A DNA stretch of 58,193 nucleotides from an uncultured Lachnospiraceae bacterium (lineage in GTDB: Bacteria > Bacillota > Clostridia > Lachnospirales > Lachnospiraceae), in NCBI GenBank assembly GCA_947039785.1, contig CAMQZX010000001.1, positions 1 through 58,193 of the forward strand. Direction: 5' to 3'. Every line of letters begins with the position of its first letter. The first letter of the stretch is position 1. Under the pieces are notes generated by a model, which was not told the origin of the DNA, made no database searches, and saw only the letters and a list, made by a program, of their open reading frames with translations. A program made the translations under genes and the position numbers. This document shows positions 27,972-53,460 of this stretch, piece after piece.

Positions 27972-28529
27972 CTACCGTACCTTTCCTGATCGGGCCGGAA
28001 CCTTATCCGTTATATTCTCTAAAGAAGAAATAAGAGCCATAATCTTTTCACTGTGACCTTTTTCCAAAACAGTCTCTAAATAGTCTATGATGTCCTGGCG
28101 CTTTTCCCGGTCTCCAATATCCCTGTAGAGGCGTCTTACCGGATCGGACTGGTTGTCCCCGGCTCTCATGTATCCCGCATCAAGATACTGGATAAAGTCT
28201 GTTTCCTTCATCACATCGTTCAGTTCCCATGCCAATTCCGCCATTTCTTCCTTCTTATCTGCTTTCCTGACAGCTCCGACCTCATCTAATTTATCTGCCA
28301 GGTTCACTCCCTGCTTCCTGTCCCGGTCAGGTAAGAGCGAAGAACGGTACATCAAAAAGCAGGTTAGATGGTCCCTCAATCTATGATTGTCTAAGACCGC
28401 TCTAATCCCAGGTATTTTCCCCCCTGCTGGTACTAAATCACGGAAGCTCTCAATATATGCGTCTCCCAGCTTACATTCCAAAAGATATTTTTTTATTTCA
28501 GAAGCCAGTTTATCCTGCTCATAGATCAC
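27972..28529 (-). CDS. Hypothetical protein (185 aa)
   Basis: ORF track. Overlaps the relaxase 3' end by 11 nt. Confidence 0.5.
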   Translation of the reverse strand: MIYEQDKLASEIKKYLLECKLGDAYIESFRDLVPAGGKIPGIRAVLDNHRLRDHLTCFLMYRSSLLPDRDRKQGVNLADKLDEVGAVRKADKKEEMAELAWELNDVMKETDFIQYLDAGYMRAGDNQSDPVRRLYRDIGDREKRQDIIDYLETVLEKGHSEKIMALISSLENITDKVPARSGKVR

Positions 28530-29975: not shown

Positions 29976-30299
29976 TTAATTACCCGCTATGTCCAAATGG
30001 CTGACTACCTGCATGACTGCCTCCTTGATCTGCTTCATATAAACATACAGACGTTTTTTATCGGATTCATGGTATAAGCCGCTGTTGTTGTTTTTGACAA
30101 TCTGGTTGATGTTTATCCCAATATGGTTTATCTCATTCGTGAGATTCTGCAATGCTTCAAGAAGTTCCGGATAATCTCTGGGGCGGTTGGTTATCAGCAT
30201 CCTCAAATACTGCGAATCGGATAGCCCTCTCTCTTTTGCCTTTCTGTTCAGCTCCTCCAATTCTTCGCATGACAGCCGAATTTCCTTCCGGCAGTTCAT
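29976..30299 (-). CDS. mobC: MobC-family relaxosome accessory protein
   Basis: ORF track. Reads IRLSCEELEELNRKAKERGLSDSQYLRMLI...NEINHIGININQIV. Lies immediately upstream of the relaxase (2-nt gap). Confidence 0.75.
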   Translation of the reverse strand: MNCRKEIRLSCEELEELNRKAKERGLSDSQYLRMLITNRPRDYPELLEALQNLTNEINHIGININQIVKNNNSGLYHESDKKRLYVYMKQIKEAVMQVVSHLDIAGN

Positions 30300-30883: not shown

Positions 30884-31300
30884 TCAACGGGAATTTTTCT
30901 TCGCCGGTGTCGCTTTTTGATTTACCTGTTTCCATAAGGAGGTCTGTTCAAATATCTCGTCTAACAGCCTCTCATCTTTTTTCAGCTGCTTTATCCTGTC
31001 TATGATTTCCCTCGCTTCACTGGTTCCAGCTTTCTCTTCCAGTCTCTGTCTGGAATCTAAGATGAATTCATTGTTCCATTCACAGGCAAGGAATGTAACC
31101 TCGTCCATGGTGATTTCTTCTATTTGATCTCCCTCTAAATCCACCCAATAGAGCTGCCCTTTTTCATCTGCATACAGCCCGTAGGCACTTCCTTCCATGT
31201 AACCCAACAGAACCTGGGCATGTTCCTCATTCAGTGAAAATGGTATAGAAAAGTCATCGAGATAGGCCAGCAGTTCCGTGGCCGTATTCAATTGTTTCAA
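30884..31300 (-). CDS. Hypothetical protein, paralogue R1
   Basis: ORF track (TTG start with AAGGAGG 7 nt upstream). Confidence 0.6.
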   Translation of the reverse strand: MKQLNTATELLAYLDDFSIPFSLNEEHAQVLLGYMEGSAYGLYADEKGQLYWVDLEGDQIEEITMDEVTFLACEWNNEFILDSRQRLEEKAGTSEAREIIDRIKQLKKDERLLDEIFEQTSLWKQVNQKATPAKKNSR

Positions 31301-31323: not shown

Positions 31324-32238
31324 CTACCGGCTATGTCCTGATGGCGGCTTCTTATCCTTGTTTTCATACTTTTTTAATACCGCCAGAATCTCACTTATTT
31401 TTTTACGGGCCGTCTCCGGAAGTTCCCCCATCTCAGCATTTCGCAGAAACTGCGTTTCGGTCTTCCTTCCATATAATGTTGCCAGCCCGCCGTATGTCTC
31501 TTTTGCTAGGTCAGCTTCGGTATTTCCAGACTGCAGCTTTTCCGCCCAAACCTCTGGCATATAATCCCGGACTAAAATACAGATATCGCAGGCAGCCTGT
31601 TGTAGATCCGTGCGCTTTAAAATAGGTTCCTTTTGATCAATAGACCATATACTATTCAGCATGTCCTGCGCCAATCTCAAATCACGCTCATCTGTTCCAT
31701 TTAGGATTGTATCTACAACCTTCTGTAGCTGCTGGTACTCCTCATCCATTCCCTGTAAAGGAATACTCTTATTTTTATCCAGTCTCTCCATAATGTCGCA
31801 CACCTCCAAGCCAACAGCTTTTTGTATGGATTCCTTTGTAATGTTATTTTCCCTGCAATATTCCAGATAGGTTTCCAGTCCCCCTAAATATGTAATTTCC
31901 TCCAATGGGGTGTCAGCCAGTTCCTCCCATGTTTCATAATGGCCTTCCATTGTCATGGCTGCTATCGTACAATCATCAAATTCCAAGTCATAGAACAGGT
32001 CATCATCTGTACTGCACATTCCAATCCGGTAAATATCAGGTTTGTCTTCCTTAGCGTACACATTGAAAAATAACCTAGCTTCATCGGTGCTCGCAACTGC
32101 TGCATATTGATATGGGCTGCCCTTCACCCTGTCCTTGTTCAAGATATACAGCAGGGTGTATTCTCCAAAGTGGTTTCGTTTCAGATACTCCTTACTGTCA
32201 TAGATCAATCTCTCAATTTCTGTCTGTTTTGCTTCCAT
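31324..32238 (-). CDS. Hypothetical protein, paralogue Q3 (shares one module with Q1 and Q2)
   Basis: The ORF track lists 31324..32250; ATG 32238 is preferred (SD GGTGAGGTGG). Shared module: IAAMTMEGHYETWEEL...YLEYCRENNITKESIQKAVGLEVCD. Confidence 0.55.
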   Translation of the reverse strand: MEAKQTEIERLIYDSKEYLKRNHFGEYTLLYILNKDRVKGSPYQYAAVASTDEARLFFNVYAKEDKPDIYRIGMCSTDDDLFYDLEFDDCTIAAMTMEGHYETWEELADTPLEEITYLGGLETYLEYCRENNITKESIQKAVGLEVCDIMERLDKNKSIPLQGMDEEYQQLQKVVDTILNGTDERDLRLAQDMLNSIWSIDQKEPILKRTDLQQAACDICILVRDYMPEVWAEKLQSGNTEADLAKETYGGLATLYGRKTETQFLRNAEMGELPETARKKISEILAVLKKYENKDKKPPSGHSR

Positions 32239-32261
32239 ATTCCACCTCACCTATTTCTTTA

Positions 32262-33177: not shown

Positions 33178-34230
33178 CTATCTAGTTCTTTTTTTGTCTG
33201 TCTGGTTCACATGATTCTTATAATCCTGCATCTGTGATTCTGCCTCACCAATCAAATCTCCCACACTCCATCCGATAGACGCTGTAATAGATGCCGCTGT
33301 GATATTTCTTTCTTTACAGTAAATAAGGTAATCCTCGAACCCTTCTCTATAGGGCAACGTGTCGAGGCCCTCCCTGTCAAGTTCGTCCCAGACATTAAAG
33401 TGACCGTCCATCGTAACCACCGCTATTTCATAGCCTTCTTCCAACGGTTTAAACAGATCCTCATGAACAGATGTATCACCTATATAAATTTCAGTAACTT
33501 CTTCCTCAGAAACAGAAAAATAGACTGCCATTTCCTGCTCATATTCAGCAACCCCTTTGTAACTGATGGTCCCATCCTGTTCTTTTTTTAGGATATAGTA
33601 AATACTGGCATCATGATACTTTTGAGAATCCAAAAAGTTTTTATTTTCTACGAGTACAGTGATTCTCTCCATAAAAGGAGTTTCCATGTGCGTAAAACCT
33701 TTGTTCAGTCTTGTTAAAACTTCCGCAGCCTGTATTTCCAGTTCATATTTTGGTCTCATACGTTCCAAATAGTCAATCCAGAATTGCATGAACTCACGCC
33801 GCTTCTCCGGATTCTTTATTTCCTGATAGGTACGTCTCACTACGTCCGACTCCGATTCTCCTGGTAAACGCATCGCTTCCCATTGCCAGTAATCAACAGA
33901 TTTTGTCATTCTACAGATATCCCAGGCCAGATTTTTCAAAAAGTCCGGCTCTCTATTTTTGTCAGGATATCCATATTCCCACAGTTCTCCGATCAAGCCT
34001 TCTGTCTGCCTTGTAACCTCAATGCTTTTTGCACGGCTGACCTTATATAAGTAATCAATAAGCAGCTTTCTGGCGTCCGCAAACCGGAGCGTATCCAGAA
34101 CATTTTCGGTTTGGTTGTAAGGATACGGCTTATAGAAAAATGGGGTAAAAATGTCTCCCAATGGTCCTCTCTTCATGAATTCGTCCACGTAATCTTTTAA
34201 TCGTTCAAATTCCTCTGGTTCATACCTCAA
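33178..34230 (-). CDS. Hypothetical protein, paralogue Q1
   Basis: The ORF track lists 33178..34353, but that version overlaps the DUF5049-like gene by 98 nt. TTG 34230 has AAAGGAG 8 nt upstream and gives M-RYEPEEFERL, parallel to MKYEPEKFE in Q2. Confidence 0.6.
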   Translation of the reverse strand: MRYEPEEFERLKDYVDEFMKRGPLGDIFTPFFYKPYPYNQTENVLDTLRFADARKLLIDYLYKVSRAKSIEVTRQTEGLIGELWEYGYPDKNREPDFLKNLAWDICRMTKSVDYWQWEAMRLPGESESDVVRRTYQEIKNPEKRREFMQFWIDYLERMRPKYELEIQAAEVLTRLNKGFTHMETPFMERITVLVENKNFLDSQKYHDASIYYILKKEQDGTISYKGVAEYEQEMAVYFSVSEEEVTEIYIGDTSVHEDLFKPLEEGYEIAVVTMDGHFNVWDELDREGLDTLPYREGFEDYLIYCKERNITAASITASIGWSVGDLIGEAESQMQDYKNHVNQTDKKRTR

Positions 34231-34255
34231 TACTCTGTCTCCTTTACATTCTGTA

Positions 34256-34480
34256 TTATCTATTTTTCTGTCTGTCCTGTTTGGGAATGTCCTCCTTTTT
34301 CTGCTGTTCTTGTTCGGAAGTTTTCCCCCATATAATAAAATGGCAATATTCACTTTTATGGTTCTGCAAATATTCCGCCAGTTCGAGAAATCCCATTTTT
34401 AATGCAATTTTCGTAACTGCAATCACATCAAACATATTGGTTTCACCAGTATCCCTGACCACCAATATCTGCTCTTTCAC
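34256..34480 (-). CDS. DUF5049-like small protein
   Basis: ORF track (GTG start). KEQILVVRDTGETNMFDVIAVTKIALKMGFLELAEYL matches my recollection of the DUF5049 pattern. Confidence 0.55.
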   Translation of the reverse strand: MKEQILVVRDTGETNMFDVIAVTKIALKMGFLELAEYLQNHKSEYCHFIIWGKTSEQEQQKKEDIPKQDRQKNR

Positions 34481-34537
34481 AATCGGTTCTATTACAGTTC
34501 CAGCTCCTTCCTTTTTCTAAATCTAAGGGGCCGGTCC

Positions 34538-34644
34538 GGACTGGCTTTGCCAGTCCTCTGCAAGATACGGATTTTGCCGTACAAAATCCATCTTGTTAGG
34601 GGAGATCCCCTAATACCCCCATATCAGCCTCAAAAAGCTGATAT
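34538..34644. repeat. Four consecutive perfect hairpins in non-coding DNA
   Basis: Four stems. GGACTGGC-ttt-GCCAGTCC (34538-34556). CAAGAT..GGATTTTG-ccgta-CAAAATCC-ATCTTG (34561-34595). TTAGGGG-agat-CCCCTAA (34596-34613). ATATCAGC-ctcaaaaa-GCTGATAT (34621-34644). Confidence 0.8.
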
Positions 34645-34659
34645 CATTCACAATTTTTT

Positions 34660-34902
34660 GCTATCAATTCCGCGGATATTACGCGAAAATCTGATAGCAG
34701 AAAAGGGAAACTGACAGCAGTTTCCCCTCAAATCACATACTGCCTGCTATCAGCTTCATATATCTGATAGCAGGCAGTATGGAGTATGATATCATCAAAG
34801 GCTTTGTGATATCACATTCCAAGGTTATCTGCTATCAGTCAATTAAACCTGATAGCAGAATTCCACTTTTGTTTTTGATACTAGGTTGCCGCATTTGATA
34901 GC
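34660..34902. repeat. Iteron/operator-like array: seven copies of GCTATCA(G) in alternating orientation, plus further palindromes
   Basis: GCTATCA at 34660, 34747 and 34831. TGATAGC at 34692, 34765, 34850 and 34896. Two copies form 15-bp (34739-34753/34764-34778) and 11-bp (34828-34838/34849-34859) perfect inverted repeats with 10-nt loops. Also present: GGGAAACTG-acag-CAGTTTCCC (34705-34726), ATGATATCAT (34786-34795) and TGTGATATCACA (34805-34816). Confidence 0.8.
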
Positions 34903-34988
34903 ATCCCTTGACCTGCTGTTTAAAATAGTTCTGTTTTTCCCAATCCATTCTGCATTGATGTTCTTTATATTAAGATTTTATATCTCTG

Positions 34989-36503
34989 TCATTGACGGTT
35001 CCCATAAAATCGTTCCAGTGCTTTCTCGAAGGCACCTATCCCGGAAAAAAAGCTTCCTATCTTTACATCTTCAAACAGGTAAGGCATAGCGCTATATAAA
35101 GCTTCAAAAATACTGGTTAAGACATTCACTACAATCGAATTTCCTGCCTGCTTATATGCCTGGCTGTTACTGATGCCCGCTTCCAGGACCTTCTGGTAAT
35201 CTTCATCATCAAAACCCATCAGCCTGAAGCACTCTAATGGTGTAAGCCGCCTGATACGAAGGATTGATTCCAGCCTGCACAGGGAATTTCCCTGCGCAGT
35301 GATTGTCGGGCAGATGGTCCCATGTCCCTGTACCCGGCCCCGTTTTCCGGCAGCATTCGGATAGGCGATATTTACAACTCCCTCTGCCATACATTCCTCG
35401 TAGCCTTTTACGGTGTCCTGCCGCACCAGAATGATGTTATCCTTCTGTACGGAGGTAATCGCATAGCTGCACCAAGGCTTATCCTTTAGTTCCAGGTGCT
35501 GTTCGACTCTTCCCTCTTCATTATATCTTCCACGGATTGCCCCCACTTGCAAAATCTTTGTCTGGTCGTGGCTCGCAAGCTGGGTATTGGCAGTTCCCAT
35601 CCCTGATAGTATAACACTCTGTTGGGAATTTCCAATACTTCCGACCACGGCTATTTTATTTCTTCCGGCACCGCTTGCCAGCAAAGTAGGGCTGGAACCG
35701 ATTGCAGAGTATACCCTGCCAGTCTGGGGATCGCCAAGATACCCCTGAACCTGTCCAACTTTATACAGTTTATTTTCCCACTGTTTCAGTTCCTCTTCCC
35801 CAGGCATATACAGAAGCGCTTTCCGCTCCTTCATGTCTGTAATCAGTTTCTGCACTTTATCATCTGACAGATAATATTTCTCATCTACCTCATCTTCAAG
35901 GATATCCATCAGCCGCCTCCCGTTTTCCATTGGCTCTGGGAATACGAATTTTCCATTATCACATTCCTTTTTAATCAGGACGAGGTATACCCGTTCCCGG
36001 TTTTGCGGAATCCCATAATTTTTCGCGTTCAATATCTTCCAATAGGTGTTGTATCCATATTCCTGCAATTCCTGCTCAAATAGACGGAATGTGCTGTTTA
36101 GAAACCTTGCCTGAACAATATTTTTTACATTCTCATAAATTCCAAACATCGGCTTTACTTCCCGGATAACCCGAAGCCACTCTACAAGGAGAGAGGACCT
36201 TGTTTTATCCAGATTCTTTGAGCCGCATTTTTCACAAAAATCCCGTTTGCTCCAATGTACCTGCAGCGGGTTTACCTCATGCCCGCAATCTCTGCACCTC
36301 CAGACGGAACCGGCCAGCTTCCCACTTAGGGAGAAATCCTGACACGGGCTTCCACCGCAGATAAAGTTGAAATAAGGTAGCTTTTTCTCATCAACTTTCG
36401 TAATATCCCCAAGGTTGGCACTCTCGTCAACCCCATGTATGGCGCAATAACTTTTTACTGCATATTTGTCAAACTCACAAAAATTTATTAATTTATAATC
36501 CAA
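34989..36503 (-). CDS. dcm: DNA (cytosine-5)-methyltransferase with an inserted CxxC...CxxC zinc-ribbon
   Basis: ORF track (TTG start). Motif I region FCEFDKYA, motif IV GGSPCQDFS, motif VI ENVKNI, motif VIII QNRERVY. The insertion WRCRDCGHEV...FCEKCG lies between motifs IV and VI. Confidence 0.85.
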   Translation of the reverse strand: MDYKLINFCEFDKYAVKSYCAIHGVDESANLGDITKVDEKKLPYFNFICGGSPCQDFSLSGKLAGSVWRCRDCGHEVNPLQVHWSKRDFCEKCGSKNLDKTRSSLLVEWLRVIREVKPMFGIYENVKNIVQARFLNSTFRLFEQELQEYGYNTYWKILNAKNYGIPQNRERVYLVLIKKECDNGKFVFPEPMENGRRLMDILEDEVDEKYYLSDDKVQKLITDMKERKALLYMPGEEELKQWENKLYKVGQVQGYLGDPQTGRVYSAIGSSPTLLASGAGRNKIAVVGSIGNSQQSVILSGMGTANTQLASHDQTKILQVGAIRGRYNEEGRVEQHLELKDKPWCSYAITSVQKDNIILVRQDTVKGYEECMAEGVVNIAYPNAAGKRGRVQGHGTICPTITAQGNSLCRLESILRIRRLTPLECFRLMGFDDEDYQKVLEAGISNSQAYKQAGNSIVVNVLTSIFEALYSAMPYLFEDVKIGSFFSGIGAFEKALERFYGNRQ

Positions 36504-36686: not shown

Positions 36687-37592
36687 TTATCTTGCCTTAT
36701 GTCTCGTTTTTTTCTCTATCTGTGCCGCCGGTTGGATTGCAAGGCTTTCGGCATCAAACTGGAACACCATATTAGAGACCTGGACAGGGAACACTTCTGC
36801 TCTTTTATCCATCTCATTGCTCTTTTTTACTATTTCCTGCAAAGTTTCCAAACTGTGTCCTGATATTGGACAGACAAGGATTTTATCATTTGATAACGGC
36901 ATAACATACAGGTCATCATCCAAACGCCTTGAGATTTCACTCAAACCCTCGGGATAGAACATGATTGCAATCCCATTCTCGCTGTACACCCCGTAATAGT
37001 CTTTTGTGTCTGGAAGCGCCCCGCTTAATGCCCCTAATGTATGAGCCAGAACAGCTCTGCTCGTATCCAAAACCGTCTGAAAGCGTTCATTCATATCGAA
37101 ATATTTGACTTTATCAAATAATTCCTGTACCGTAAGTCCCCACTGCTTTAAATGTTCATTTTGGACAGGTCTTTTATAATCCAGAGGCCACTGTTCATCC
37201 TCGTCATAGACTTCATCAAAGAACTGAAAATATACAGCCATATCCCCAACAGGCAGATATGGTATATCATTCCCTTCCAGCTTTTCGGCTGCCTTTTCAA
37301 AATTAGCCGCCCAAATCGTAACATTTTCTAACTGCTCAATCGTTTCAATAGCACGCTTTTTTTCAAAATAATCGCAGATACTGCTTACCTGGGCCGTTAA
37401 TTCGCCTTCTTTCCACTGTCTATATAAGCTATGGATTGACAATGACTGGCTACACACAGGCGGCTGCATAAGTTCAAGGGCTATTTCCTCATTGTCCGTA
37501 CCTTCTGCTATTACTATCAATCTCTGATGCTCTTCATCAATGTGACGCCCAAGTTCTGTAATCAGTCCCTGTTTATATTCTTCATATGTCAT
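36687..37592 (-). CDS. Paralogue P8 of the eight-gene ~300-aa family (subfamily C, closest to P4)
   Basis: ORF track. Family motifs: GNDIPYLPVGDMAVYFQF, NEHLKQWGLTVQELF, YGVYSENGIAIMFYPE, LYVMPLS. Basic tail KKTRHKAR. Confidence 0.65.
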   Translation of the reverse strand: MTYEEYKQGLITELGRHIDEEHQRLIVIAEGTDNEEIALELMQPPVCSQSLSIHSLYRQWKEGELTAQVSSICDYFEKKRAIETIEQLENVTIWAANFEKAAEKLEGNDIPYLPVGDMAVYFQFFDEVYDEDEQWPLDYKRPVQNEHLKQWGLTVQELFDKVKYFDMNERFQTVLDTSRAVLAHTLGALSGALPDTKDYYGVYSENGIAIMFYPEGLSEISRRLDDDLYVMPLSNDKILVCPISGHSLETLQEIVKKSNEMDKRAEVFPVQVSNMVFQFDAESLAIQPAAQIEKKTRHKAR

Positions 37593-38530
37593 TCATTTAC
37601 ACCCTTCAACCATTCGCGTATGGTCAGCAATTTGTTCTTGTTCTCCGATGGTGAATAGTGGAAACCATGACTTGATATGGCATACCCAGCCAAGCTGTGT
37701 CGAACCTGACGGTTCCCATTCTTGTGGACATCTTCAATGGAAAATGCTGGTGCCAGTGCTCCCATAGTATCAGGCAGGATATAAGCCTCCCTCTCTGAAT
37801 ATGGCAAAATATAAAAGCTATCCGGCATCAGGCGGCTAAGTTCCTGTAAGGTATCCCAGTATAATACACTTGCCGCTCCTCCAGGTCCCGTGACCACATA
37901 ACCAAGGCTATCCTCTGCCTCTCCATTGTTCAGACAGCACGAAATACCTTCCAGCACGTTTTCAATCTTCTCACACAACGGATAGATTTTGCTCTCCATG
38001 GATACCAGCGAATGTTCCAGTACAAAATTATGAAAATCACTTTTTCTCATTTTCCAGGATGCCAGATGTTTATTGGTTACTTCTGCCTGATAATAACGCC
38101 CGTCTCCCAGCGGTGCGTGAAACATATAGTAGAGCACCATGTCCCCCATAACCTGGTAAGGCATATCATTCTTTTTCAGGGCTTCCAGGTCACTTCTATG
38201 GTTTGCGGCATATACTGCCACATATTCCGGCTGTTCCAACTGGCCTACTGCAATACGCAGATCTTCCGCTTCCGCATCAGAGAACACTTCCATCGCCCGG
38301 TCTGCCAATTCCTCTTCCCAGGTGTCAAACATCTCCGCTCTCAAAAAAGCCTCCCTTACCGGAATGACGGGGCAGTACCGCCCCTCCTGCTCAAATAAAA
38401 TTGTGATTCCCTCGGTCGGGAGACCCCTAGCCACCGTTCTAACTTCCCCGCGAATTGCGGAATCCTCAAAAGCGGAACGAATACATTGCTGGTAAGCATC
38501 TGAAAACTGTTTATATAATTTGAGGTTCAT
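37589..38530 (-). CDS. Paralogue P7 (subfamily A, closest to P1)
   Basis: The ORF track lists 37589..38596; ATG 38530 is preferred (AAGGAG 10 nt upstream). Motifs: RYCPVIPV, NDMPYQVMGDMVLYYMF, VTNKHLASW, VTGPGGAASVLYW, FYILPYS. Confidence 0.65.
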   Translation of the reverse strand: MNLKLYKQFSDAYQQCIRSAFEDSAIRGEVRTVARGLPTEGITILFEQEGRYCPVIPVREAFLRAEMFDTWEEELADRAMEVFSDAEAEDLRIAVGQLEQPEYVAVYAANHRSDLEALKKNDMPYQVMGDMVLYYMFHAPLGDGRYYQAEVTNKHLASWKMRKSDFHNFVLEHSLVSMESKIYPLCEKIENVLEGISCCLNNGEAEDSLGYVVTGPGGAASVLYWDTLQELSRLMPDSFYILPYSEREAYILPDTMGALAPAFSIEDVHKNGNRQVRHSLAGYAISSHGFHYSPSENKNKLLTIREWLKGVNE

Positions 38531-38592
38531 ATTCTTATCTCCTTTATGATTAAATGAAAAAAGCAGGTTCTTTTCTGAATCGCTCTGAAAAG

Positions 38593-39525
38593 TCACCTGC
38601 TATGGTTTTTATTCACTTTTGGCTTCTGCCGCATCCTTTGACTTGTTTTACGGATCTCATCTGTTTTCCGGCTATAAACATAAATATAATCGGATAAATC
38701 TTTTTCCCTCTGCTGAAAACCATTTTGTTTAGAGTCGTAGAGGGTTTCCTGAATCCATTTTCTTCCGTCCCTGTTTTTATTTGATAATGCCACGCATTGA
38801 TTGATACTTGTAGGAAATAGTATCATATCGCCACCCAGTTTATCTGACAGCTCGTGTACTTTTTCTTTGTATAAAAAAGCAGAAGCACCCCAGTAAAAGC
38901 TCTCTGTTGTCATAATGTAGATATCCTTCTTTTCCGGTTCTGTCCCAAACGGTTCCACGGAAACAGCCCTTTGATTTTCCGGATTATCAAGCGACCACTG
39001 ATAAAGGGTATCAAAATCCATTCCAAACTCATTCAGCATTTCACTTGTCACTCTTAAATTAAGGTGCATATCTTCAAGCAAACAATCTGTTGAATGATAA
39101 ATAATCCTCAATACAATGGCAAGGTCCCCGTCTCCATATAGCTTATGTGGGAAATTGTCCAATACCTCTTGATTTCTTTTCGCGTTCATCAATGTCGGAA
39201 CTACTAGATTTGGCGATAACACCCCCATCTCTTTAAATGCGGCTTTGGTGATCCGGTCATCCCGCAATAAAAACTCTAGCGAATTCCTGACTACCAGCCA
39301 CAGGGGTTCTCCCAACTGTGTATGACGGTTATATGCTACAAAAGGAAATATTTCTGAGCCTTTCTCTGGGCTGCCCTGTAAACTGATCACACAGCCATCC
39401 GAAATATGGTCAGGCAGCACCACCTTCCACCCTAATCCCATCTTTTGTAAATTATTGTTTAATTCATATACAAAGGTTTCATAAAATTCCCTTTTCTCTA
39501 TGATTGAATATCTATCGTTTCTCAA
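38593..39525 (-). CDS. Paralogue P6 (subfamily D, closest to P5)
   Basis: ORF track (TTG start). Motifs: VVPTLMNAKRNQEVL, DLAIVLRIIY, VTSEMLNEFGMDFDTLY, WGASAFLYKE, ILFPTS. Tail KVNKNHSR. Confidence 0.6.
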   Translation of the reverse strand: MRNDRYSIIEKREFYETFVYELNNNLQKMGLGWKVVLPDHISDGCVISLQGSPEKGSEIFPFVAYNRHTQLGEPLWLVVRNSLEFLLRDDRITKAAFKEMGVLSPNLVVPTLMNAKRNQEVLDNFPHKLYGDGDLAIVLRIIYHSTDCLLEDMHLNLRVTSEMLNEFGMDFDTLYQWSLDNPENQRAVSVEPFGTEPEKKDIYIMTTESFYWGASAFLYKEKVHELSDKLGGDMILFPTSINQCVALSNKNRDGRKWIQETLYDSKQNGFQQREKDLSDYIYVYSRKTDEIRKTSQRMRQKPKVNKNHSR

Positions 39526-39534
39526 ACCCTCCCC

Positions 39535-40440
39535 CTATCTGCCTCGTTTTTTCGTTTCTTTTAACTGGCTGGGAGTAATCATACGAAACTGTGCGGTTTC
39601 ACAATTATAGTGGTATAGATTCCCAGACAGGGGCTTTATACTTCCAGTGATTACCTCTTTACTACTGTGTAGTGCATTAGATATATAATCTATGCCCTTT
39701 TGGTCTAAAAGCGGCATTGCCAAAAAATGGTCAACGCTCATAGGAACCAATAAGATATCATCCCCCATAGTTTCTGCAAGTTCATACATTCTGGTTTTGT
39801 AAAGAATACCTGCAGCGCCTAAATGTTGACCAGTATTCGTTACCACATAGAAGGGAGGTAAATCCTCTACTGTTTCATCGGGTGATATAATATCTATCAT
39901 CTTGTGCAACTCTATCATCTGTACAGACTCAACATTCCTCGGATTATCCAGGGCCATTTGATAAAGTTCATCATACCTCAGCCCCCATCCCTGTAAGATA
40001 TCGTCTGTTACCACAAGGTTGAGATTGATACCGCCCAGGGACTGATATGCAATTTGAAGTATAACTGCTAAATCTTCAAACCTTGAATATGGAACGGTTT
40101 TCAATAGTTCCTCATTTTCCTCTGTGTTCATAAAAGTGGGAATTACCATATCTGCATGAAAAAGCCCCATATCCATCAGTGCACATTTTGTGCTCTCATC
40201 ATCAAAGAAATCCTGTGTTGCTTTCCGTGCAGCGACTCCCCAGGGCATCCCCTGCAAAAACTCCTGGTAATAATCGTGAACTTTAATCGGAGGAAAATCA
40301 TGCCCTCCACCATGGATTACCACCAAAACTTCTTCTCTGCCGCCTGTGTTCTCATACTTAGCCCGCCATGGAACACCCAGCATTTTTAAATTATAGTTGA
40401 CTTCATGGGTAAAAAACTGGATGAATTCTTCATATTCCAT
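39535..40440 (-). CDS. Paralogue P5 (subfamily D)
   Basis: ORF track (SD AAGGAGG). Motifs: VIPTFMNTEENEELL, DLAVILQIAY, VTDDILQGWGLRYDELY, LGAAGILYKT, ILLVPMS. Tail KETKKRGR. Confidence 0.65.
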   Translation of the reverse strand: MEYEEFIQFFTHEVNYNLKMLGVPWRAKYENTGGREEVLVVIHGGGHDFPPIKVHDYYQEFLQGMPWGVAARKATQDFFDDESTKCALMDMGLFHADMVIPTFMNTEENEELLKTVPYSRFEDLAVILQIAYQSLGGINLNLVVTDDILQGWGLRYDELYQMALDNPRNVESVQMIELHKMIDIISPDETVEDLPPFYVVTNTGQHLGAAGILYKTRMYELAETMGDDILLVPMSVDHFLAMPLLDQKGIDYISNALHSSKEVITGSIKPLSGNLYHYNCETAQFRMITPSQLKETKKRGR

Positions 40441-40463
40441 CTTTGTCTGTCCTCCTTGAGATT

Positions 40464-41429
40464 TTATCTGCTTTGCTTTTTACCGACCAGTGTTTTCTCA
40501 TGATTCATAGTTGTCTCCAATTTCTGATCAATGACAGCCTGTAATTGTTCTATACCACCCTTGAGCCTGTAAAACTTCCCCTCTGTATACGAATAAACCT
40601 GCCTGGACAAAAATAACCGCGCGTCCGTATCCTCCGTATACTCCCGGATTTTTCTTTGTACCCACATATCCTGTATACGGCTTTCCGGTAATATGGCCGC
40701 TTTTCGTTCTGAATACGGTACGATTATGACCCGCTCATGAAAAGCCTCTTCAAATTGACGCAGCACTTCGGGGTAAAGTATCGCCCCGGCACCGTTCAAT
40801 CCATACAGCTCATATGGCGCATTGTAGATATCTTCTGCTCTTGCAATCACAGGTATATGGCCAAAATCATATGGTTGAAGGCTTTCCACCCAGTCATAAG
40901 CACAGGCACCGATTTTCTGTGCCTCGCATTGCCTAACAATATTGAATAATTCTTCGGCTGAAAACTTCCATTTTAGGAGATGGTCTTTTGTTACAATACT
41001 TTCCATTGTACCGCCGAAAGGCAGCTCATAATCAAACCTGAAATATACTGCCATGTCACCTACTGCCAAATATGGTATACCCTTACCCCGCAGGATTTCT
41101 TTGCTTTTCTCAAAGTTTGTTACACAGGCTAAAACACTTTCTATGCATTCCACCTGTTCTCTTTGTACTGTACCAAACTCCCGGAAACAATCCAATGTAT
41201 CCTTCACAATAGAAAACATTGGTCTAGCATTTTTGCAATAATCCGAATAAATTTCCTGAAGGTCTATGCAATGACAGATTTTATCGCCTAAATCCAGGGT
41301 TGCCTTTTCCAGCGATAACCCTTCCCCTATCACGACCGGTCTGATGGAATAACCATGCTGGTCTAAAAGTTCTGCTATTTTTTGTAGATAAGCAACCTTA
41401 AATTGGTCATAGTTTATTAAGTTCATCAA
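40464..41429 (-). CDS. Paralogue P4 (subfamily C)
   Basis: ORF track. Motifs: GKGIPYLAVGDMAVYFRF, VTKDHLLKWKFSAEELF, YGLNGAGAILYPE, VIIVPYS. Tail VGKKQSR. The start is either TTG 41429 or ATG 41426. Confidence 0.65.
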   Translation of the reverse strand: MMNLINYDQFKVAYLQKIAELLDQHGYSIRPVVIGEGLSLEKATLDLGDKICHCIDLQEIYSDYCKNARPMFSIVKDTLDCFREFGTVQREQVECIESVLACVTNFEKSKEILRGKGIPYLAVGDMAVYFRFDYELPFGGTMESIVTKDHLLKWKFSAEELFNIVRQCEAQKIGACAYDWVESLQPYDFGHIPVIARAEDIYNAPYELYGLNGAGAILYPEVLRQFEEAFHERVIIVPYSERKAAILPESRIQDMWVQRKIREYTEDTDARLFLSRQVYSYTEGKFYRLKGGIEQLQAVIDQKLETTMNHEKTLVGKKQSR

Positions 41430-41446
41430 TCCACTAACCCACCTAC

Positions 41447-42391
41447 CTATCTCAATTTTTGTTTCTCAATTTTCGGAGGAACTGCATGAATCAGGTTTCT
41501 GCTTTCCAGATCGTATTTAAAAACCCGCTCAGATAGTTTATGGCGTATTTCCCCTGTTTCTTCTTTCATTATATTCTCACTGGTCAGGCTCTCATATAAG
41601 TCTGACAGATTCCCAACACTTTGCGCATGGACATAAGCACCAAAGGCATCATTGGGAACAATCAGCATCTCGTCCCCTAATTTATCATACACCAGTTCCA
41701 TAACTTTCGGATAGAAGATTGCACCAAAGCCATTCACACCATAGACATTGTAGACTTGCTTCAGTTCCAATGGCACACCATCCGCCGGCCTAAAAAGGAT
41801 TGTTTTATCATTTTCATATCTGTTTGTAAGTGAATCGTACATATTTACGATACCCACTCCTATTTCATTTGCATCCTTGTATCTGACTTTCTCAAAAAGT
41901 TCCTCCACACCGATTCCCCATTTTTCCAAATGCTCTTTTGTAACATCTCCGCAGTACGATCTCTCCCCTCTTTCAATACAGAATTGGAAAGTGACCGCCA
42001 TATCCTGATATGGCATATATGCAATGTTTCCCTCCACCAGTTTATCCTCATATTCTGCCAAATTCATAGGATATATAAGTACATGCTCTATCTGCTCAAA
42101 TTGTTCGCGCGGTATCCACTCATCCCCATCAAATATACCCAGAATCTGCGTGACCGCCTCGTCTAACTCGTTGTTCTCAGCAACATAGCAGTTAAGATAC
42201 ACCAATTCCATCGGAATACTGGGGCAAACTAACTCCCCTCCACCTTTCAGCATAATGGCTTCAAATGGCGTGCCTTCAGCTATCAGCTTCAGTTCCTCCC
42301 CTCTGTCTCTTTCTTGTAGCTGGTCTTGAAATTCATCAATAAAATCCTCTCGTAATTCGTCATATGCTTCGTTCTCACTATAATAATACAT
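41447..42391 (-). CDS. Paralogue P3 (subfamily B, closest to P2)
   Basis: ORF track. Motifs: LIAEGTPFEA, VCPSIPMELVY, GNIAYMPYQDMAVTFQF, VTKEHLEKWGIGVEELFEKVRYKD, YGVNGFGAIFYPKVM, MLIVPND. Tail IEKQKLR. Confidence 0.65.
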   Translation of the reverse strand: MYYYSENEAYDELREDFIDEFQDQLQERDRGEELKLIAEGTPFEAIMLKGGGELVCPSIPMELVYLNCYVAENNELDEAVTQILGIFDGDEWIPREQFEQIEHVLIYPMNLAEYEDKLVEGNIAYMPYQDMAVTFQFCIERGERSYCGDVTKEHLEKWGIGVEELFEKVRYKDANEIGVGIVNMYDSLTNRYENDKTILFRPADGVPLELKQVYNVYGVNGFGAIFYPKVMELVYDKLGDEMLIVPNDAFGAYVHAQSVGNLSDLYESLTSENIMKEETGEIRHKLSERVFKYDLESRNLIHAVPPKIEKQKLR

Positions 42392-42441
42392 CTATCTCCT
42401 TCCCTTCTGGCCGTCTGCGCTTCTCCCGATTAAAGCGGTTT

Positions 42442-43335
42442 TCATTTCACTCTATGCTTTTCAATGGTATGTTCCATTGCCGGGACCAGGTTTTTCCTGC
42501 CGGTATCGTACTTAAATATCTTCCCAGAAAGTACAAGGTGCCTATCGCCAGTCACCAGTTTCACACGATTGTCCTCCTGTAATTCTTCTTGCAGTTTTGC
42601 AGCACTCATAATATCCGGTGTCTGAATATAAGCCGTATAGGTTTCTTCAGGTACAATCAGCACTTCACTGCCCATTTTTTTTACTACCTGCTCCATCACT
42701 TTTGGATAAAGGGCAGCACCAAAGCCATTGACGCCATACAAAGCAGCCTGCTGTGAATCCTCTGATTTTTTTCCCACCTGCTCTATGGTTTTAATTTCGC
42801 CCCAAATTTGCTCCAGGTCTTTATACCTTACTTTTTCAAAGAGTTCCTTTGCATTTATCCCCTGCCTATTCAGCCATTCCCTTGTAACATCCCTGCGATA
42901 CGACCTCTCATTGTCCTCAATGCAGAATTGATAAGTGATCGCCATATCTTCGAAGAGAAAATATGCAATATCATTTTCTTCCAGCTTATCCCTGCAATGT
43001 GATAGATTTACCGGAAACACTATTACATGTTCCAGTTGTTCCAGCCGCTCCGGGGATATCCATTCTGCCTCATCCTGAATCTCCAAGATAGTAGATACGG
43101 CCTCATCAATCTCTCGAATGGCAAAAATATAGCAATTTCTGTACACCAGTTCCATAGAGATACTGGTACATAATAAAGGTCCATTCCCTTTGTATGTAAA
43201 GGATTCAAAAGGAGTACCTTCCGCCACTATTTCCAACTTCTCCCCATTTCCTCTGCGTTCTAGCTGTGCCTTATATTCTTTAATGAAATCCTCCCGGACT
43301 TCCTCATATGCATGGTTTTCATCATATTCGCGCAT
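42442..43335 (-). CDS. Paralogue P2 (subfamily B)
   Basis: ORF track. Motifs: IVAEGTPFES, NDIAYFLFEDMAITYQF, VTREWLNRQGINAKELFEKVRYKD, YGVNGFGAALYPKVM, VLIVPEE. Tail IEKHRVK. Confidence 0.65.
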   Translation of the reverse strand: MREYDENHAYEEVREDFIKEYKAQLERRGNGEKLEIVAEGTPFESFTYKGNGPLLCTSISMELVYRNCYIFAIREIDEAVSTILEIQDEAEWISPERLEQLEHVIVFPVNLSHCRDKLEENDIAYFLFEDMAITYQFCIEDNERSYRRDVTREWLNRQGINAKELFEKVRYKDLEQIWGEIKTIEQVGKKSEDSQQAALYGVNGFGAALYPKVMEQVVKKMGSEVLIVPEETYTAYIQTPDIMSAAKLQEELQEDNRVKLVTGDRHLVLSGKIFKYDTGRKNLVPAMEHTIEKHRVK

Positions 43336-43395
43336 TTTGGTTCTCCTCTTCGTCTATTTACCATTTCCTGCATCTGTAGACTCCCGTACCGACTC

Positions 43396-44310
43396 TTAGA
43401 CCAGGGTTTTTTTCACCAATGAAGACTGGTGCACCGTCAGGGTTTTACTCTTGAGACTATAATACAAAACCGACTCTGACAACGGATGGCTTACAAATCC
43501 CTTTAAGGATTTTTTTCTTTCGAGACGCATCTGAAGGTCAGCAGGTGTATACTGGTCGGCGGCATATATAGCGGTTTCCTCTGCTGTTACTGGAAGCAGG
43601 TACAGATCCGTGTTGACCATTTCTGCAAATTCATCCAGAATATTCCTATAAAGCATGCCTGCCGCGCCTCCCGGACCTGTCAGCCGCCAGGCACTTGCGC
43701 GTTCATTTGTAATCTTTCCTCTCCCAAGCGTAAAGCCTGCCTCCAAGCCTTCCCGTATAACGGCTGCAACCGGTTCAATCTGCACACTATACTGGGAGAA
43801 AGCATTGTCTGACACGCACGCATGCAGTTGATCTACATGCATTCCCCACCGCTGTAAGTCCTCTTCATCTACGGGCATGGTGTATACAAGTTTTTCACTT
43901 TCCTCTTTCACACGGAACCGATAAAAGATACACATATCTCCCAGTCTGGTATACGGCAGCTCCAATTCTTCCAGCCTCATCTGGTATTTGTTTGCATTCA
44001 CTGCATGGAACTCTACAAACAATGGATTCTTGACCGTATCCATCTTCAATCGGATACCTCCGGTTTCCGCCGTCTGAAATTCCTGCAGTGTCTCCGAAGC
44101 CAATATCCTGACTGGCAGCATTTCATACTGGCTTCTCAAAAACAGTTCCTCTATGCTGACCATAGGGCAGTACCTATCCTTGAAAGTCATTGTGATTGAT
44201 TCACCTGGTAGTCCTTCCATAACCAAGTTCAACGCTCCTAACGTTTTGCTTTTCTCCATCAGGTCAATGAACTGATAGAGAAACTCTTCTTTGAAATTAA
44301 AATAATCCAT
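43396..44310 (-). CDS. Paralogue P1 (subfamily A)
   Basis: ORF track (SD AAGGAG). Motifs: RYCPMVSIEELF, LELPYTRLGDMCIFYRF, VDEEDLQRWGMHVDQL, LTGPGGAAGMLYRN, LYLLPVT. Tail SLVKKTLV. Confidence 0.65.
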   Translation of the reverse strand: MDYFNFKEEFLYQFIDLMEKSKTLGALNLVMEGLPGESITMTFKDRYCPMVSIEELFLRSQYEMLPVRILASETLQEFQTAETGGIRLKMDTVKNPLFVEFHAVNANKYQMRLEELELPYTRLGDMCIFYRFRVKEESEKLVYTMPVDEEDLQRWGMHVDQLHACVSDNAFSQYSVQIEPVAAVIREGLEAGFTLGRGKITNERASAWRLTGPGGAAGMLYRNILDEFAEMVNTDLYLLPVTAEETAIYAADQYTPADLQMRLERKKSLKGFVSHPLSESVLYYSLKSKTLTVHQSSLVKKTLV

Positions 44311-44333: not shown

Positions 44334-45338
44334 TTATCCGATTGCCTGTTTCCGGTCCAGATTGCTATTCCTGTTCAAATATTGAATCACTGCCTTTTTT
44401 CTTTCTGCAACAAGAAATTCATTCCAATCTTTCCCATATGGCGGGAACCGGACTTTAACGTGATATCCCATCTCTATATATTTCTTGCGTATAAGTGCCG
44501 CTGCTTTCCGGCCTGCCTTATCATTATCAAGATACAGGCTTATTCGTTTAATCTGTGGATTTTCTAGCAGGAACCGGTCCAATGCCCCGTCCCAGGTTGA
44601 CCCTAATGCCAACTTGTTTGACTGCCCATCACGCTTATAATCCATATAAGACATCAGGTCAATGGCTGCCTCAAATACCTTGACTTCTTTATTTTTCTTG
44701 TTTCTTACATTGAAACCATAGGTTTTATCGTTGTTCTCCACGTCCCCTTTAAACGGGTTTCCATAATTATCCACCGTTCCCCTCATACTGGCAAACCGTG
44801 CTGTACCAAAGGAATCCCTGCCAATAAAAACCACGTTATGATATCTGCGTGTTTCATAAATCAGCTTTTTTTTAACGAACCAGTCAACTACTTCTTTGCT
44901 CAGGCAGCGCGTTTTTAACAGATAGGCATATAACCTCCGATAATTGTCGTTTGGTTCGGGAAGCACAAACTCCCCTTTCCCTTCTTGTTCTTTATTTTGC
45001 TCTTCCTTTCTTCTCTCGTGGTTTTTCCTGCTTGTATCATCTTTAAATGATTTATCCTCATACCGATAACCGGCCTCGTTCAACAAATAGATAACCGCCT
45101 CACGAAAATCCATATAGCAAAATTGTCTCAGAAACTCAATGTTATCCCCGTTGTGACCGTCCTGGCCCTCGGGTACGGAAAAACGCAGCCAGCTCCTACG
45201 ATTTTTAATCCTTATAGAATCATGTTCTTTCAATGTATAGTAACTGCCTACCCGCTTCACCGTGAAGCCCTGCCTTTCAGCAATAGACACCAGGTCCACG
45301 CTTCTGGCTATCTCTAATTCTTCATCTGTAAACTTCAT
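44334..45338 (-). CDS. DUF3991 + Toprim domain protein (conjugative primase-like)
   Basis: ORF track. N-terminal region VDLVSIAERQGFTVKRVGSYYTLKEHDSIRI...GDNIEFL. C-terminal Toprim features EVKVFEAAIDLMSY and LYLDNDKAGRKAA (E...DxD). Confidence 0.75.
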   Translation of the reverse strand: MKFTDEELEIARSVDLVSIAERQGFTVKRVGSYYTLKEHDSIRIKNRRSWLRFSVPEGQDGHNGDNIEFLRQFCYMDFREAVIYLLNEAGYRYEDKSFKDDTSRKNHERRKEEQNKEQEGKGEFVLPEPNDNYRRLYAYLLKTRCLSKEVVDWFVKKKLIYETRRYHNVVFIGRDSFGTARFASMRGTVDNYGNPFKGDVENNDKTYGFNVRNKKNKEVKVFEAAIDLMSYMDYKRDGQSNKLALGSTWDGALDRFLLENPQIKRISLYLDNDKAGRKAAALIRKKYIEMGYHVKVRFPPYGKDWNEFLVAERKKAVIQYLNRNSNLDRKQAIG

Positions 45339-46428: not shown

Positions 46429-46905
46429 CTATAATTCCGATTCTCGACTCTCATCACCTTCTTTACACAAATTTTTCATCCATCTTTGCTTTTTACATTG
46501 CGGTGCTGTTGTATGTCTGCGCCTGGCAGGTGTATCCCAGGAGCCGCCCCCTGCAATCTCTTTCTCACATTCCCACCCTGCCGCTTTTAAGGAAGCACCG
46601 GATTCAGAGATAAGGATATAAGTGATAATCCGCTCATATCCCATCTCTTTTGCAATCCGGGCTACCCGCCCGTATAGGAAGCTACAGGCATTGGCTGTAC
46701 CGTCTGTGCAGCAACGCGTTACTTCCAGCGTTTTTCCATCGTCTAAATGCCTGGATACTGGCCTGCCGCACTGTATCACGCCACATATTCTGCCATGCTC
46801 AGTACATGCGACACGGAATTTGTCCCGGTATACAGGGCTATGATGCCTATGATTCTGCGCGACATATTCATTTGCCGCCTTTAACTCAATCGGTACTGCT
46901 TTCAT
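46429..46905 (-). CDS. GNAT-fold-like small protein of a phage/ICE family (HHRHH ... GRPV.R.LDDG ... TDG..NACS signature)
   Basis: ORF track. NHRHHSPVYRDKF..GVIQCGRPVSRHLDDGKTLEVTRCCTDGTANACSFLYGRVARIAKEMGYERIITY...GASLKAAGW matches a conserved mobile-element family I recall, possibly named the XF1762 family. Function unknown. Confidence 0.55.
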   Translation of the reverse strand: MKAVPIELKAANEYVAQNHRHHSPVYRDKFRVACTEHGRICGVIQCGRPVSRHLDDGKTLEVTRCCTDGTANACSFLYGRVARIAKEMGYERIITYILISESGASLKAAGWECEKEIAGGGSWDTPARRRHTTAPQCKKQRWMKNLCKEGDESRESEL

Positions 46906-46967: not shown

Positions 46968-47828
46968 TTAGTCTGGTCCCATGTCCATAAAATCCGCGAG
47001 GCACAACTGTCCCTCTACATTTTTATCCTCCATCCACCACCGGAACACGTCCTCTCCGTTCTTCCACTTAGTAGGTTTCCCCGCCGCATGGATTGCCACT
47101 AACATTTTATCAAACGCCCGGATATAAGCTGCCTTATACTTTGGGAAGTCAGCAAACTCTTTGTAGCGGTTTTTTCCAGCCATCGGGCACCCTACACAGC
47201 CAACTCTTTTATAACCCATATCATAAAGCGGATTATAAGGCATATGGTTGGAACGGATATAATCCCAGATGTCTTTATGTGTCCAGTCAATGATTGGGTT
47301 GGACACTACCCTGCCACGGATTGCACACCGCTCAATAACCAGCCGCTTATCATCGTTGTCGTTCATCAGAGTAATCCTATTCTCGACTTTTGGGGCAGCC
47401 GCTTCTAACTGTCCCCTTTTGGACCGTTTGGTGCTTTCGTCCCAGCGCACACCTGTTGATACCAGTCTGTCCGGTGTTGTGTTCTCTTTTAGGATTTCAC
47501 AACAGTAACGCTGCATCCTGGTGGGCGGCATCTTCTTTTTGACAATCAACTGCCACATGCTCAGTGGCGGCATATGGATAATACATGGGATTCCCTTTTC
47601 TTTTAAACCTCGAAATTTCTCCCTGATATAGTACACCGTATCGGGAGCATCGACTGTTGTATGAGAATTGTGGGCCTCAAATTCAACTCCTGACCGGATA
47701 AACAAATCCAGAAGTACGTCAGAATCCTTGCCCCCACTGTAAGTACAGATTATGGGGGCATCATAGTACCTCTTTGACATTTCACTTGCTAATTTAATCC
47801 GTTCAATGCTCTTCGTCTCTAAATCCAA
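46968..47828 (-). CDS. PAPS reductase-like PP-loop ATPase family protein
   Basis: ORF track (TTG start, no clear SD). PP-loop motif CTYSGGKDSDVLLDL. C-terminal Cys pair VGCVGCP. Confidence 0.75.
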   Translation of the reverse strand: MDLETKSIERIKLASEMSKRYYDAPIICTYSGGKDSDVLLDLFIRSGVEFEAHNSHTTVDAPDTVYYIREKFRGLKEKGIPCIIHMPPLSMWQLIVKKKMPPTRMQRYCCEILKENTTPDRLVSTGVRWDESTKRSKRGQLEAAAPKVENRITLMNDNDDKRLVIERCAIRGRVVSNPIIDWTHKDIWDYIRSNHMPYNPLYDMGYKRVGCVGCPMAGKNRYKEFADFPKYKAAYIRAFDKMLVAIHAAGKPTKWKNGEDVFRWWMEDKNVEGQLCLADFMDMGPD

Positions 47829-53456: not shown

Positions 53457-53460
53457 CTCC

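Follow-up and report, generated by a model that had tools for sequence, protein, structure and literature searches.

The 58,193-nucleotide (nt) stretch of DNA analysed here, referred to below as the window, is contig CAMQZX010000001.1 (positions 1 to 58,193, forward strand) of assembly GCA_947039785.1, from an uncultured Lachnospiraceae bacterium. On its minus strand, at 36687-44310, we found eight consecutive, co-oriented open reading frames (ORFs) of 297-321 amino acids (aa) that together occupy 7.6 kb and encode members of the DUF5688 family. It is well supported that this row is a positionally conserved, operon-like set of seven or eight ancient paralogues forming a small, degenerate branch of DUF5688 that is specific to an integrative and conjugative element (ICE). 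Equally well supported is its location in an accessory block upstream of the NikA and relaxase genes in a family of conjugative elements circulating in Clostridia (Enterocloster, Robinsoniella, and Clostridioides difficile). The array is a genuine, well-delimited and unpublished feature; the family to which it belongs is catalogued in Pfam (PF18941) and the assignment is firm. The copies are numbered P1 to P8 along the direction of transcription (Table 1).

All eight proteins pass the DUF5688 gathering threshold of Pfam (34.5 bits), scoring 36.8-122.5 bits with P2 marginal at 36.8, and their matches to the family hidden Markov model (HMM) are significant and span the full length. A preliminary description of the window, made from the sequence without database searches, had named DUF5688 as a possible family, which proved correct, as all eight copies exceed the gathering score. 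A local HMM search of the window finds exactly eight copies, and additional hidden copies were therefore rejected. The translations of P1 to P8 align collinearly with 11 invariant columns, and the proteins are acidic (pI 4.4-6.2, net charge -3 to -32). The genes are separated by -4 to 60 nt, the stop of P7 and the start of P8 overlapping by 4 nt, and no terminator-like site was detected on the minus strand within the array, so that co-transcription is plausible. For P7, the mechanically called ORF is 335 aa long from a GTG at 38596; the ATG at 38533 follows an AAAGGAG sequence and matches the N-termini of the other copies.

A profile built from the eight proteins detected 13,134 representatives of 50%-identity clusters at E <= 1e-3 (8,223 at E <= 1e-10). 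Array-like proteins make up only about 20 of the best profile matches, and the remainder is a plateau of members that we call core. In an alignment of 118 core members, the columns conserved at 97-100% are K-N-N, located at a hairpin turn, P-T-x-Y-x-N, N-T, and S-S-x-H-E, located at the end of a strand. We scored a signature of 13 positions (K31, N32, N33, P51, T52, Y54, N56, N170, T171, S247, S248, H250, and E251 in core HMM numbering). The window copies keep 0-4 of the 13 (four in P5, the best, two in P1, none in P2), whereas most of 146 representatives keep 9-13. Each of the columns conserved at 97-100% (K, N, N, T, Y, N, S, S, H, and E) is retained in zero to two of the eight copies, except the second serine of SSxHE, which is retained in five. 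The lost residues are replaced differently in each paralogue; the H-E pair, for instance, reads EE, YT, FG, RK, DH, NQ, RE, and DK from P1 to P8. Scaffold columns (L, D, G, Y, P, and S; hydrophobic, glycine or proline) are kept in all eight. The window copies are therefore members of DUF5688 by homology, but they form a degenerate sub-branch. Beyond this scaffold, which includes the L and D of the DLA/DMA strand, the G and Y of the G.GA..LY loop, the P of the (L/V)P.S strand and LS..Y.Y, array and core proteins share an acidic character overall. They differ in that core members (about 300 aa, Clostridia) are single-copy and keep the polar signature, whereas the array has seven or eight tandem copies that have lost it, adds a basic C-terminal extension in five to seven of them, and falls into separate clades in the tree.

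The preliminary description recognised no catalytic motif, which holds for the eight copies but leaves aside the strongly conserved polar signature of the parent family that they have lost. In the core members, the near-invariant polar site (KNN / PTxYxN / NT / SSxHE) looks like a catalytic or ligand-binding site. Since this site is lost while the fold and the scaffold residues are kept, the array proteins are probably best read as non-catalytic derivatives, that is, as pseudoenzyme-like binders. We modelled P5 and one widespread core member (P0253) with AlphaFold2, and both models are confident, with a predicted local distance difference test (pLDDT) score of 85.7 and a predicted template modelling (pTM) score of 0.82 for P5, and 87.4 and 0.81 for P0253. 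P5 is predicted to adopt a compact alpha/beta fold, and the two models show the same succession of helices and strands when the order of secondary-structure elements is compared. According to these models, the array proteins share the DUF5688 fold. No recurrent second Pfam family was found in 93 family members at a permissive E-value, the single weak match being to DUF1444 (E 0.0037). A Foldseek search of BFVD returned as its best match an unnamed viral protein of 139 aa (E 1.6e-3).

Related elements were recovered by exact-sequence look-ups of homologues. The block of primase, DUF5688 row, C5 methyltransferase, NikA and relaxase is also present in the chromosome of Enterocloster clostridioformis (locus L001), in several metagenome contigs, in an uncultured Robinsoniella genome (L007) and in a Clostridioides difficile assembly (L107). 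Both flanks of the array, the primase and the C5 methyltransferase, are kept in L001-L011 and L106-L107. The order P1 to P8 is kept in L001, L007, L008, L010, L106, and L107, with one clear orthologue for each member of the row. Orthologues are 51-98% identical across the related elements (65-98% for P1 in L001, L007, L008, and L010), whereas paralogues within the array are 20-46% identical; given the shared order, the array therefore predates the divergence of these elements. Recent amplification was rejected because of this low paralogue identity and because the array contains no meaningful repeat at the DNA level (a single 33-nt match at 73%). All the arrays of seven or eight copies that we sampled lie on one ICE lineage. 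A profile search of genome contigs with the P4 family detected only one locus, the array-type P4 family had no match in IMG/VR, and megablast of the array gave no match in PLSDB plasmids or INPHARED phages.

Pairwise ratios of nonsynonymous to synonymous substitution rates (dN/dS, Nei-Gojobori) are about 0.07-0.43 over all eight copies, which indicates purifying selection. They are 0.05-0.08 for P7, the most conserved copy, and about 0.23 for P3 against L001 and L010. The array genes exceed the flanking primase, methyltransferase and PAPS-reductase genes two- to fourfold in dN. Intact ORFs and dN/dS values well below 1 led us to reject decaying duplicates as an explanation. Individual members are missing or broken in some relatives. 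P2, the copy most often missing, is absent from L001 and L007, the P5 orthologue is missing in L008, and P4 is broken in L010 and L011 into a 233-aa product and a fragment. Every copy is thus selectively maintained, and single copies can drop out while the rest persist, a pattern that would fit a modular set and not an obligate complex. The old and retained diversification that had been proposed from the sequence is borne out by positional orthologues in at least four diverged elements, all under purifying selection.

The eight copies had also been described as four subfamilies of two. Three of these pairs are reciprocal best matches (P2/P3 at 46% identity, P5/P6 at 29%, and P1/P7 at 27%), but P4 and P8 are not sisters, as judged from the all-against-all scores and a neighbour-joining tree. 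The best match of P8 is P3 (102 bits), and the scores of P4 are nearly tied between P3 (83.6 bits) and P8 (83.2 bits). In the tree, which includes outside representatives, P4 groups with P0044 and P8 with P0039, both inside a loose clade that also contains P1, P7, P2, and P3; P5 and P6 form a second clade.

Gene identification with Pfam and NCBIfam showed that the window is a conjugative element with a type IV secretion system (T4SS), as had been supposed, with genes for a relaxase, a NikA/MobC-like protein, a coupling protein and VirB4 (Table 1). The flanks of the array were also named correctly, the primase-like gene matching DUF3991 and Toprim_2 and the orphan C5 methyltransferase matching DNA_methylase. 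The order of transcription is PAPS reductase, primase, P1 to P8, C5 methyltransferase, about six small genes without assigned function, NikA, relaxase and transfer genes. All genes from 47.8 kb to 28.5 kb lie on the minus strand and are transcribed towards NikA and the relaxase. The array lies 6-14 kb, or about 7-14 ORFs, upstream of NikA and the relaxase.

Table 1. Genes of the DUF5688 array and of the surrounding conjugative element, in window coordinates
Feature	Position	Strand	Remarks
P1	43396-44310	-	304 aa; DUF5688 paralogue; PF18941 74.7 bits; pairs with P7
P2	42442-43335	-	297 aa; DUF5688 paralogue; PF18941 36.8 bits; pairs with P3
P3	41447-42391	-	314 aa; DUF5688 paralogue; PF18941 62.8 bits
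P4	40464-41429	-	321 aa; DUF5688 paralogue; PF18941 75.4 bits; singleton
P5	39535-40440	-	301 aa; DUF5688 paralogue; PF18941 122.5 bits; nearest to core family
P6	38593-39525	-	310 aa; DUF5688 paralogue; PF18941 83.1 bits; pairs with P5
P7	37589-38533	-	314 aa from ATG; DUF5688 paralogue; PF18941 57.7 bits; most conserved copy
P8	36687-37592	-	301 aa; DUF5688 paralogue; PF18941 67.3 bits; singleton
PAPS-reductase-like gene	46968-47828	-	Pfam/NCBIfam
XF1762-family gene	46429-46905	-	Pfam/NCBIfam
DUF3991-Toprim primase-like gene	44334-45338	-	DUF3991 60.2 bits, Toprim_2 55.5 bits; 23 nt upstream of P1; 5' flank of array
Orphan C5 cytosine DNA methyltransferase	34989-36503	-	Pfam DNA_methylase 195 bits; 3' flank of array
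NikA/MobC-like relaxosome accessory gene	29976-30299	-	NikA-like 45.2 bits, MobC 33.5 bits; marks expected place of oriT
MobA/VirD2-type relaxase	28519-29973	-	Pfam Relaxase 101.9 bits
DUF3801	24860-26074	-	Pfam/NCBIfam
Coupling protein, two pieces	23568-24860 and 21953-22903	-	Pfam/NCBIfam
N6 methyltransferase	18848-19822	-	Pfam/NCBIfam
VirB4-like ATPase	15845-18241	-	Pfam/NCBIfam
RadC	12143-13012	-	Pfam/NCBIfam
NlpC/P60 hydrolase	8462-10495	-	Pfam/NCBIfam
Tad/Flp-like genes	52.5-57.5 kb	-	Pfam/NCBIfam

The array proteins extend beyond the core HMM by 10-30 C-terminal residues that are rich in lysine and arginine and mostly end in arginine. A basic tail had been ascribed to seven of the eight copies. 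We found it clearly in five (P3, P4, P5, P6, and P8, with a net charge of +3 to +5 over the last 10-12 residues and a final R) and weakly in P1 and P2, and it is not specific to the family; P7, as already stated there, has none (...EWLKGVNE, net charge 0). The tails are kept between orthologues that are merely 55-65% identical overall, such as KETKKRGR in P5, ...PKIEKQKLR in P3 and SQRMRQKPKVNKNHSR in P6; that of P8 reads ...EKKTRHKAR. Residues 293-301 of the P5 model have a pLDDT below 50 and are predicted to be disordered. The basic extension is present in none of 30 core copies that lie next to efp, the gene for elongation factor P (EF-P), and in three independent conjugative lineages whose DUF5688 copy keeps the signature (L022, L023, and L025).

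Similar tails are spread over the whole element. Among the 61 ORFs of at least 100 aa in the window, 28 (46%) end in arginine, 25 of them with a basic tail. The share ending in arginine is 6-7% among 577 genes from chromosomal control loci, 22% at other T4SS loci, and 40-43% in the related elements L007 and L008. Within the element, RadC, the N6 methyltransferase, DUF3801, DUF6674, the NlpC/P60 hydrolase and the products of the small genes that lie upstream of NikA carry the tail; the relaxase, the coupling protein, VirB4, the primase, the C5 methyltransferase and the products of the Tad genes do not. Examples of Arg-tailed ORFs are those at 33178-34353, 31324-32250, 30884-31300, 18848-19822, 12143-13012, and 8462-10495. 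This element-wide tail could be a feature recognised by the coupling protein, a protection from C-terminal proteolysis or, in part, a by-product of overlap with Shine-Dalgarno sites. For the array members, overlap with the Shine-Dalgarno site of the next gene was rejected because that site lies in the spacer; the arginine codons also vary.

Substrates of the Agrobacterium VirB/D4 system carry positively charged C-terminal signals, and to our knowledge no translocation signal has been defined for Gram-positive conjugation systems. Among the known T4SS translocation signals are C-terminal motifs with a positive charge, and 16 maintenance or leading-region proteins are translocated by an F-like system, that of pED208 (PMC11288057). 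Like the proteins translocated by these two systems, the array proteins have short C-termini rich in arginine and lysine that are predicted to be disordered and are conserved among orthologues, and they are encoded in a presumed leading block. They differ in that the same type of tail is found on 41-46% of the ORFs of the element and that the relaxase of the element has no such tail. A delivery signal is a reasonable hypothesis for the tail, no more.

Single-copy members of the family occur in other settings. Three look-ups of core members led to ordinary chromosomal locations, two directly downstream of efp and one between a GntR-type aminotransferase regulator and rluB/ligA. We collected 80 metagenome loci through the LPSSIHE motif, 51 of them non-redundant. 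DUF5688 is single-copy in 79 of the 80, and about 20 of the 51 have efp directly upstream of it on the same strand, the gene on the other side of DUF5688 being variable. Linked loci include L015-L019, L027, L032, L041, L054, L068, L072, L076, L077, L084, L090, L097, L102, and L104; the linked efp is of the Lys type, with a VKPGKGAAF loop, and its DUF5688 neighbour is signature-intact. This linkage may point to a translation- or EF-P-related role of the core family. The family is thus common in chromosomes without a mobile context, but as single copies and not as arrays, the form that the preliminary description would have counted against its reading.

In mobile elements, an LPSSIHE search of IMG/VR gave 215 relatives, 80 of which were retained; DUF5688 is single-copy in 78 of these and linked to efp in none. 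Neighbours of DUF5688 there are RadC (six times), a resolvase, DUF932, PAPS_reduct, RecT, YqaJ, a holin and the Thoeris inhibitor Tad3. At loci with T4SS markers, a signature-intact DUF5688 gene is found beside ArdC (7 loci) or a TopB-type topoisomerase (5) or near DUF3991-Toprim (3), usually upstream of the relaxase. Two T4SS elements carry two-copy tandems (L023 9995-12011 and L049 9974-12057), each with a first copy that retains the signature and a second from which it is largely gone; these may be intermediates of a duplication-degeneration series towards the eight-copy array. Apart from seven records named Bacteriophage sp., a tblastn search with P5 detected only a single plasmid, the Butyrivibrio megaplasmid pCY186, which has one copy. 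The wider family is linked both with chromosomes and with the DNA-processing and early-gene neighbourhoods of mobile elements. Two of the phage records, both from human faeces and labelled 'UNVERIFIED: Bacteriophage sp.' (L013, MT835504.1, and L015, MT835578.1), were inspected, and DUF5688 lies amid chromosomal genes in them: an ABC transporter, glycogen synthase, SpoIVB and RecN in one, and citrate synthase, patatin and EF-P (efp upstream) in the other. From this gene content, they look like bacterial fragments.

The explanation of the whole that we prefer, and hold tentatively, is a degenerate DUF5688 row whose products would act as non-catalytic binders of separate specificity and as independent modules at establishment in the recipient, with tail-mediated delivery being possible. 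The position of the array suggests a role on entry of the element into a new cell. Each paralogue would have its own conserved and non-redundant specificity, and each would work independently of the others while the incoming element establishes itself. Their partners may be different host or DNA-processing factors, bound alongside the activity of the primase, methyltransferases, PAPS-reductase-like and RadC proteins. More speculatively, the Arg-terminated tails of P3, P4, P5, P6, and P8 might be recognised by the coupling protein, and the proteins might be delivered together with the DNA.

This explanation draws on a likeness to known leading regions. According to Samuel et al. 2024 (PMC11541004), leading-region anti-defence genes, methyltransferases and genes for single-stranded DNA-binding proteins (SSBs) all have the same orientation with respect to the transferred strand (T-strand), and the relaxase is in the lagging region. 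Like the leading-region genes covered there (ArdA, ArdC, PsiB, SSB, and orphan methyltransferases), the array would lie across the presumed origin of transfer (oriT) from the relaxase and is in one orientation, towards the relaxosome genes. It likewise neighbours a primase, orphan methyltransferases and a PAPS-reductase-like gene, and the family is elsewhere beside ArdC, TopB or SSB. It differs from leading-region anti-defence proteins in having no sequence or structural similarity to any known one, and the accessible text and supplements of PMC11541004 do not mention DUF5688. DNA-mimic anti-restriction proteins (ArdA/Ocr) are acidic, as is the array, but the predicted array fold is compact alpha/beta, and Foldseek detected no likeness to ArdA or Ocr in PDB or BFVD. 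The preliminary description had read the array as an inhibitor, immunity or anti-defence repertoire. This found no support from PADLOC, PHROGs or NCBIfam matches, from a structural match to an anti-restriction protein or from an adjacent toxin, and dN/dS is below 0.45 in every copy in the pairwise comparisons that were made. The anti-defence label is a hypothesis drawn from the genomic neighbourhood.

Several observations weigh against the explanation that we prefer. The two confidently modelled proteins, P5 and P0253, match no solved structure: their best Foldseek matches in PDB had E-values of 0.16 and 0.45 and TM-scores of at most 0.2, and two profiles run against the PDB sequences returned nothing credible. 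The array proteins have no match in PADLOC, PHROGs or NCBIfam, and full-text searches returned no paper that mentions DUF5688 or PF18941. Loss of the polar signature is no proof that all activity is gone. Selection is purifying over the whole genes, with no sign of positive selection, whereas a fast arms-race repertoire predicts otherwise. As for the leading region, which we took as the first 30 or so ORFs to enter the recipient, on the other side of oriT from the relaxase, the earlier placement of the array fits the geometry, since the array is transcribed towards NikA and the relaxase and is separated from the transfer genes by the presumed oriT; neither oriT nor nic was located, however, the only inverted repeat near nikA falling inside an ORF, so the term is an argument from geometry only. 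Regarding delivery, the tail is missing from other signature-intact conjugative copies (L048, L091, L095, and L100), an arginine tail is present on proteins that are unlikely to be exported to the recipient, such as the NlpC/P60 hydrolase, and in several genes of the element the final AGG codons share nucleotides with the Shine-Dalgarno site of the gene that follows. The tail on the hydrolase and its by-product nature in several genes mean that it may not be a secretion signal.

The paralogues could instead be accessory subunits of the element's own DNA-processing machinery and not be aimed at the host, serving, perhaps in hetero-oligomeric form, as primosome or relaxosome helpers of the DUF3991-Toprim primase, either in the donor or on the incoming strand. 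The primase gene ends 23 nt before the array, within which no terminator-like site lies, the order of primase, array and methyltransferase is kept in every related element, and strong purifying selection together with a fixed gene order would suit a structural role; elsewhere, too, DUF5688 adjoins DUF3991-Toprim, TopB, SSB or ArdC, all of which handle DNA. We nevertheless consider this unlikely, as single paralogues are lost or broken in relatives while others persist, which is hard to reconcile with an obligate hetero-oligomer, the strongly acidic proteins (net charge -3 to -32) argue against direct DNA binding, and most family members are single-copy and far from any primase. It is quite unlikely, in our judgement, that the row is a panel of pseudoenzyme effectors derived from a host housekeeping-type, efp-linked DUF5688 and injected by the T4SS through the basic Arg tail, which would mark a large part of the element's proteome as a Gram-positive 'conjutome', each effector neutralising or hijacking a different recipient factor at establishment.

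Two further explanations take the chromosomal family as their starting point, and we find both improbable. The copies might be decoys or dominant-negative mimics of the recipient's chromosomal DUF5688 that titrate its partner or form dead heteromers, eight versions covering the diversity of hosts. A fold kept with its site lost would agree with this, as would the very wide distribution of the chromosomal family in the sampled hosts (Lachnospiraceae-type gut metagenome contigs), the occurrence of the element in two families of Clostridia and the tandems of an intact and a degenerate copy in other elements. The efp-linked, housekeeping-type context of the chromosomal protein, however, gives the element no reason to inhibit it, the paralogues are just 13-21% or so identical to core members, and oligomerisation is without evidence. 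Alternatively, the copies might retain the ancestral DUF5688 activity with a remodelled site, the element supplying an extra or host-independent dose. All eight pass the Pfam threshold, and many mobile elements carry a single signature-intact copy, so that the ancestral activity is evidently useful to them; yet the residues conserved at 97-100% are replaced by chemically unrelated ones, differently in each paralogue, and it would be surprising for a single activity to be kept up by eight individually conserved copies over such a time. Tandem diversified paralogues are typical of immunity clusters, which would make the row an immunity or antitoxin-type repertoire, like the orphan immunity arrays of polymorphic toxins, directed against toxins from related elements. 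This is very improbable and already weakly refuted by the context: such arrays have an adjacent cognate toxin and a rapid turnover, whereas the genes flanking this array include no toxin-like gene or toxin domain, its strict positional orthology and low dN/dS contrast with such turnover, about 300 aa is large for immunity proteins, and PADLOC gave no match.

As its 7.6 kb have been kept through deep divergence, the array very probably contributes to the fitness of an element that circulates among gut Clostridia, including C. difficile. The discovery of any function would extend annotation to a large part of the dark matter of the gut microbiome, since the family comprises more than 13,000 sequence clusters and has no structural relative. 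The intact site of the single-copy members, set against the lost site of the array, provides a clean experimental handle on enzyme versus binder. The element-wide Arg tails are a testable candidate for a protein-translocation signal in Gram-positive conjugation, and the chromosomal members, so often found next to efp, give an independent hint of a function that may be related to translation.

The surroundings of the array contain further features. In the non-coding stretch at 34520-34960, downstream of the C5 methyltransferase, we detected a cluster of inverted repeats made of CTGATAGCAG/CTGCTATCAG and TGATATCA units, with a perfect 18-nt palindromic pair at 34736-34753/34764-34781; the cluster might be an operator array, an oriT or a single-strand initiation site. 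A short group II intron of about 730 nt on the minus strand (22825-23550) interrupts the coupling-protein gene; it was identified by matches to Rfam RF02004 at 23352-23550 (152.6 bits) and RF00029 at 22825-22912 (58.7 bits) and appears to have no ORF. The minus strand of positions 1-7205 is occupied by an ORF of at least 2401 aa that runs off the low-coordinate end of the window. The segment at 52581-57478 contains pilus genes of the Tad/Flp type, namely RcpC/CpaB, a ParA-like ATPase, a T2SSE/CpaF-like ATPase and a weak TadB/C-like gene. They are co-oriented with the T4SS genes of this Gram-positive element, and the same upstream block, with DUF8193-8195, is present in related loci.

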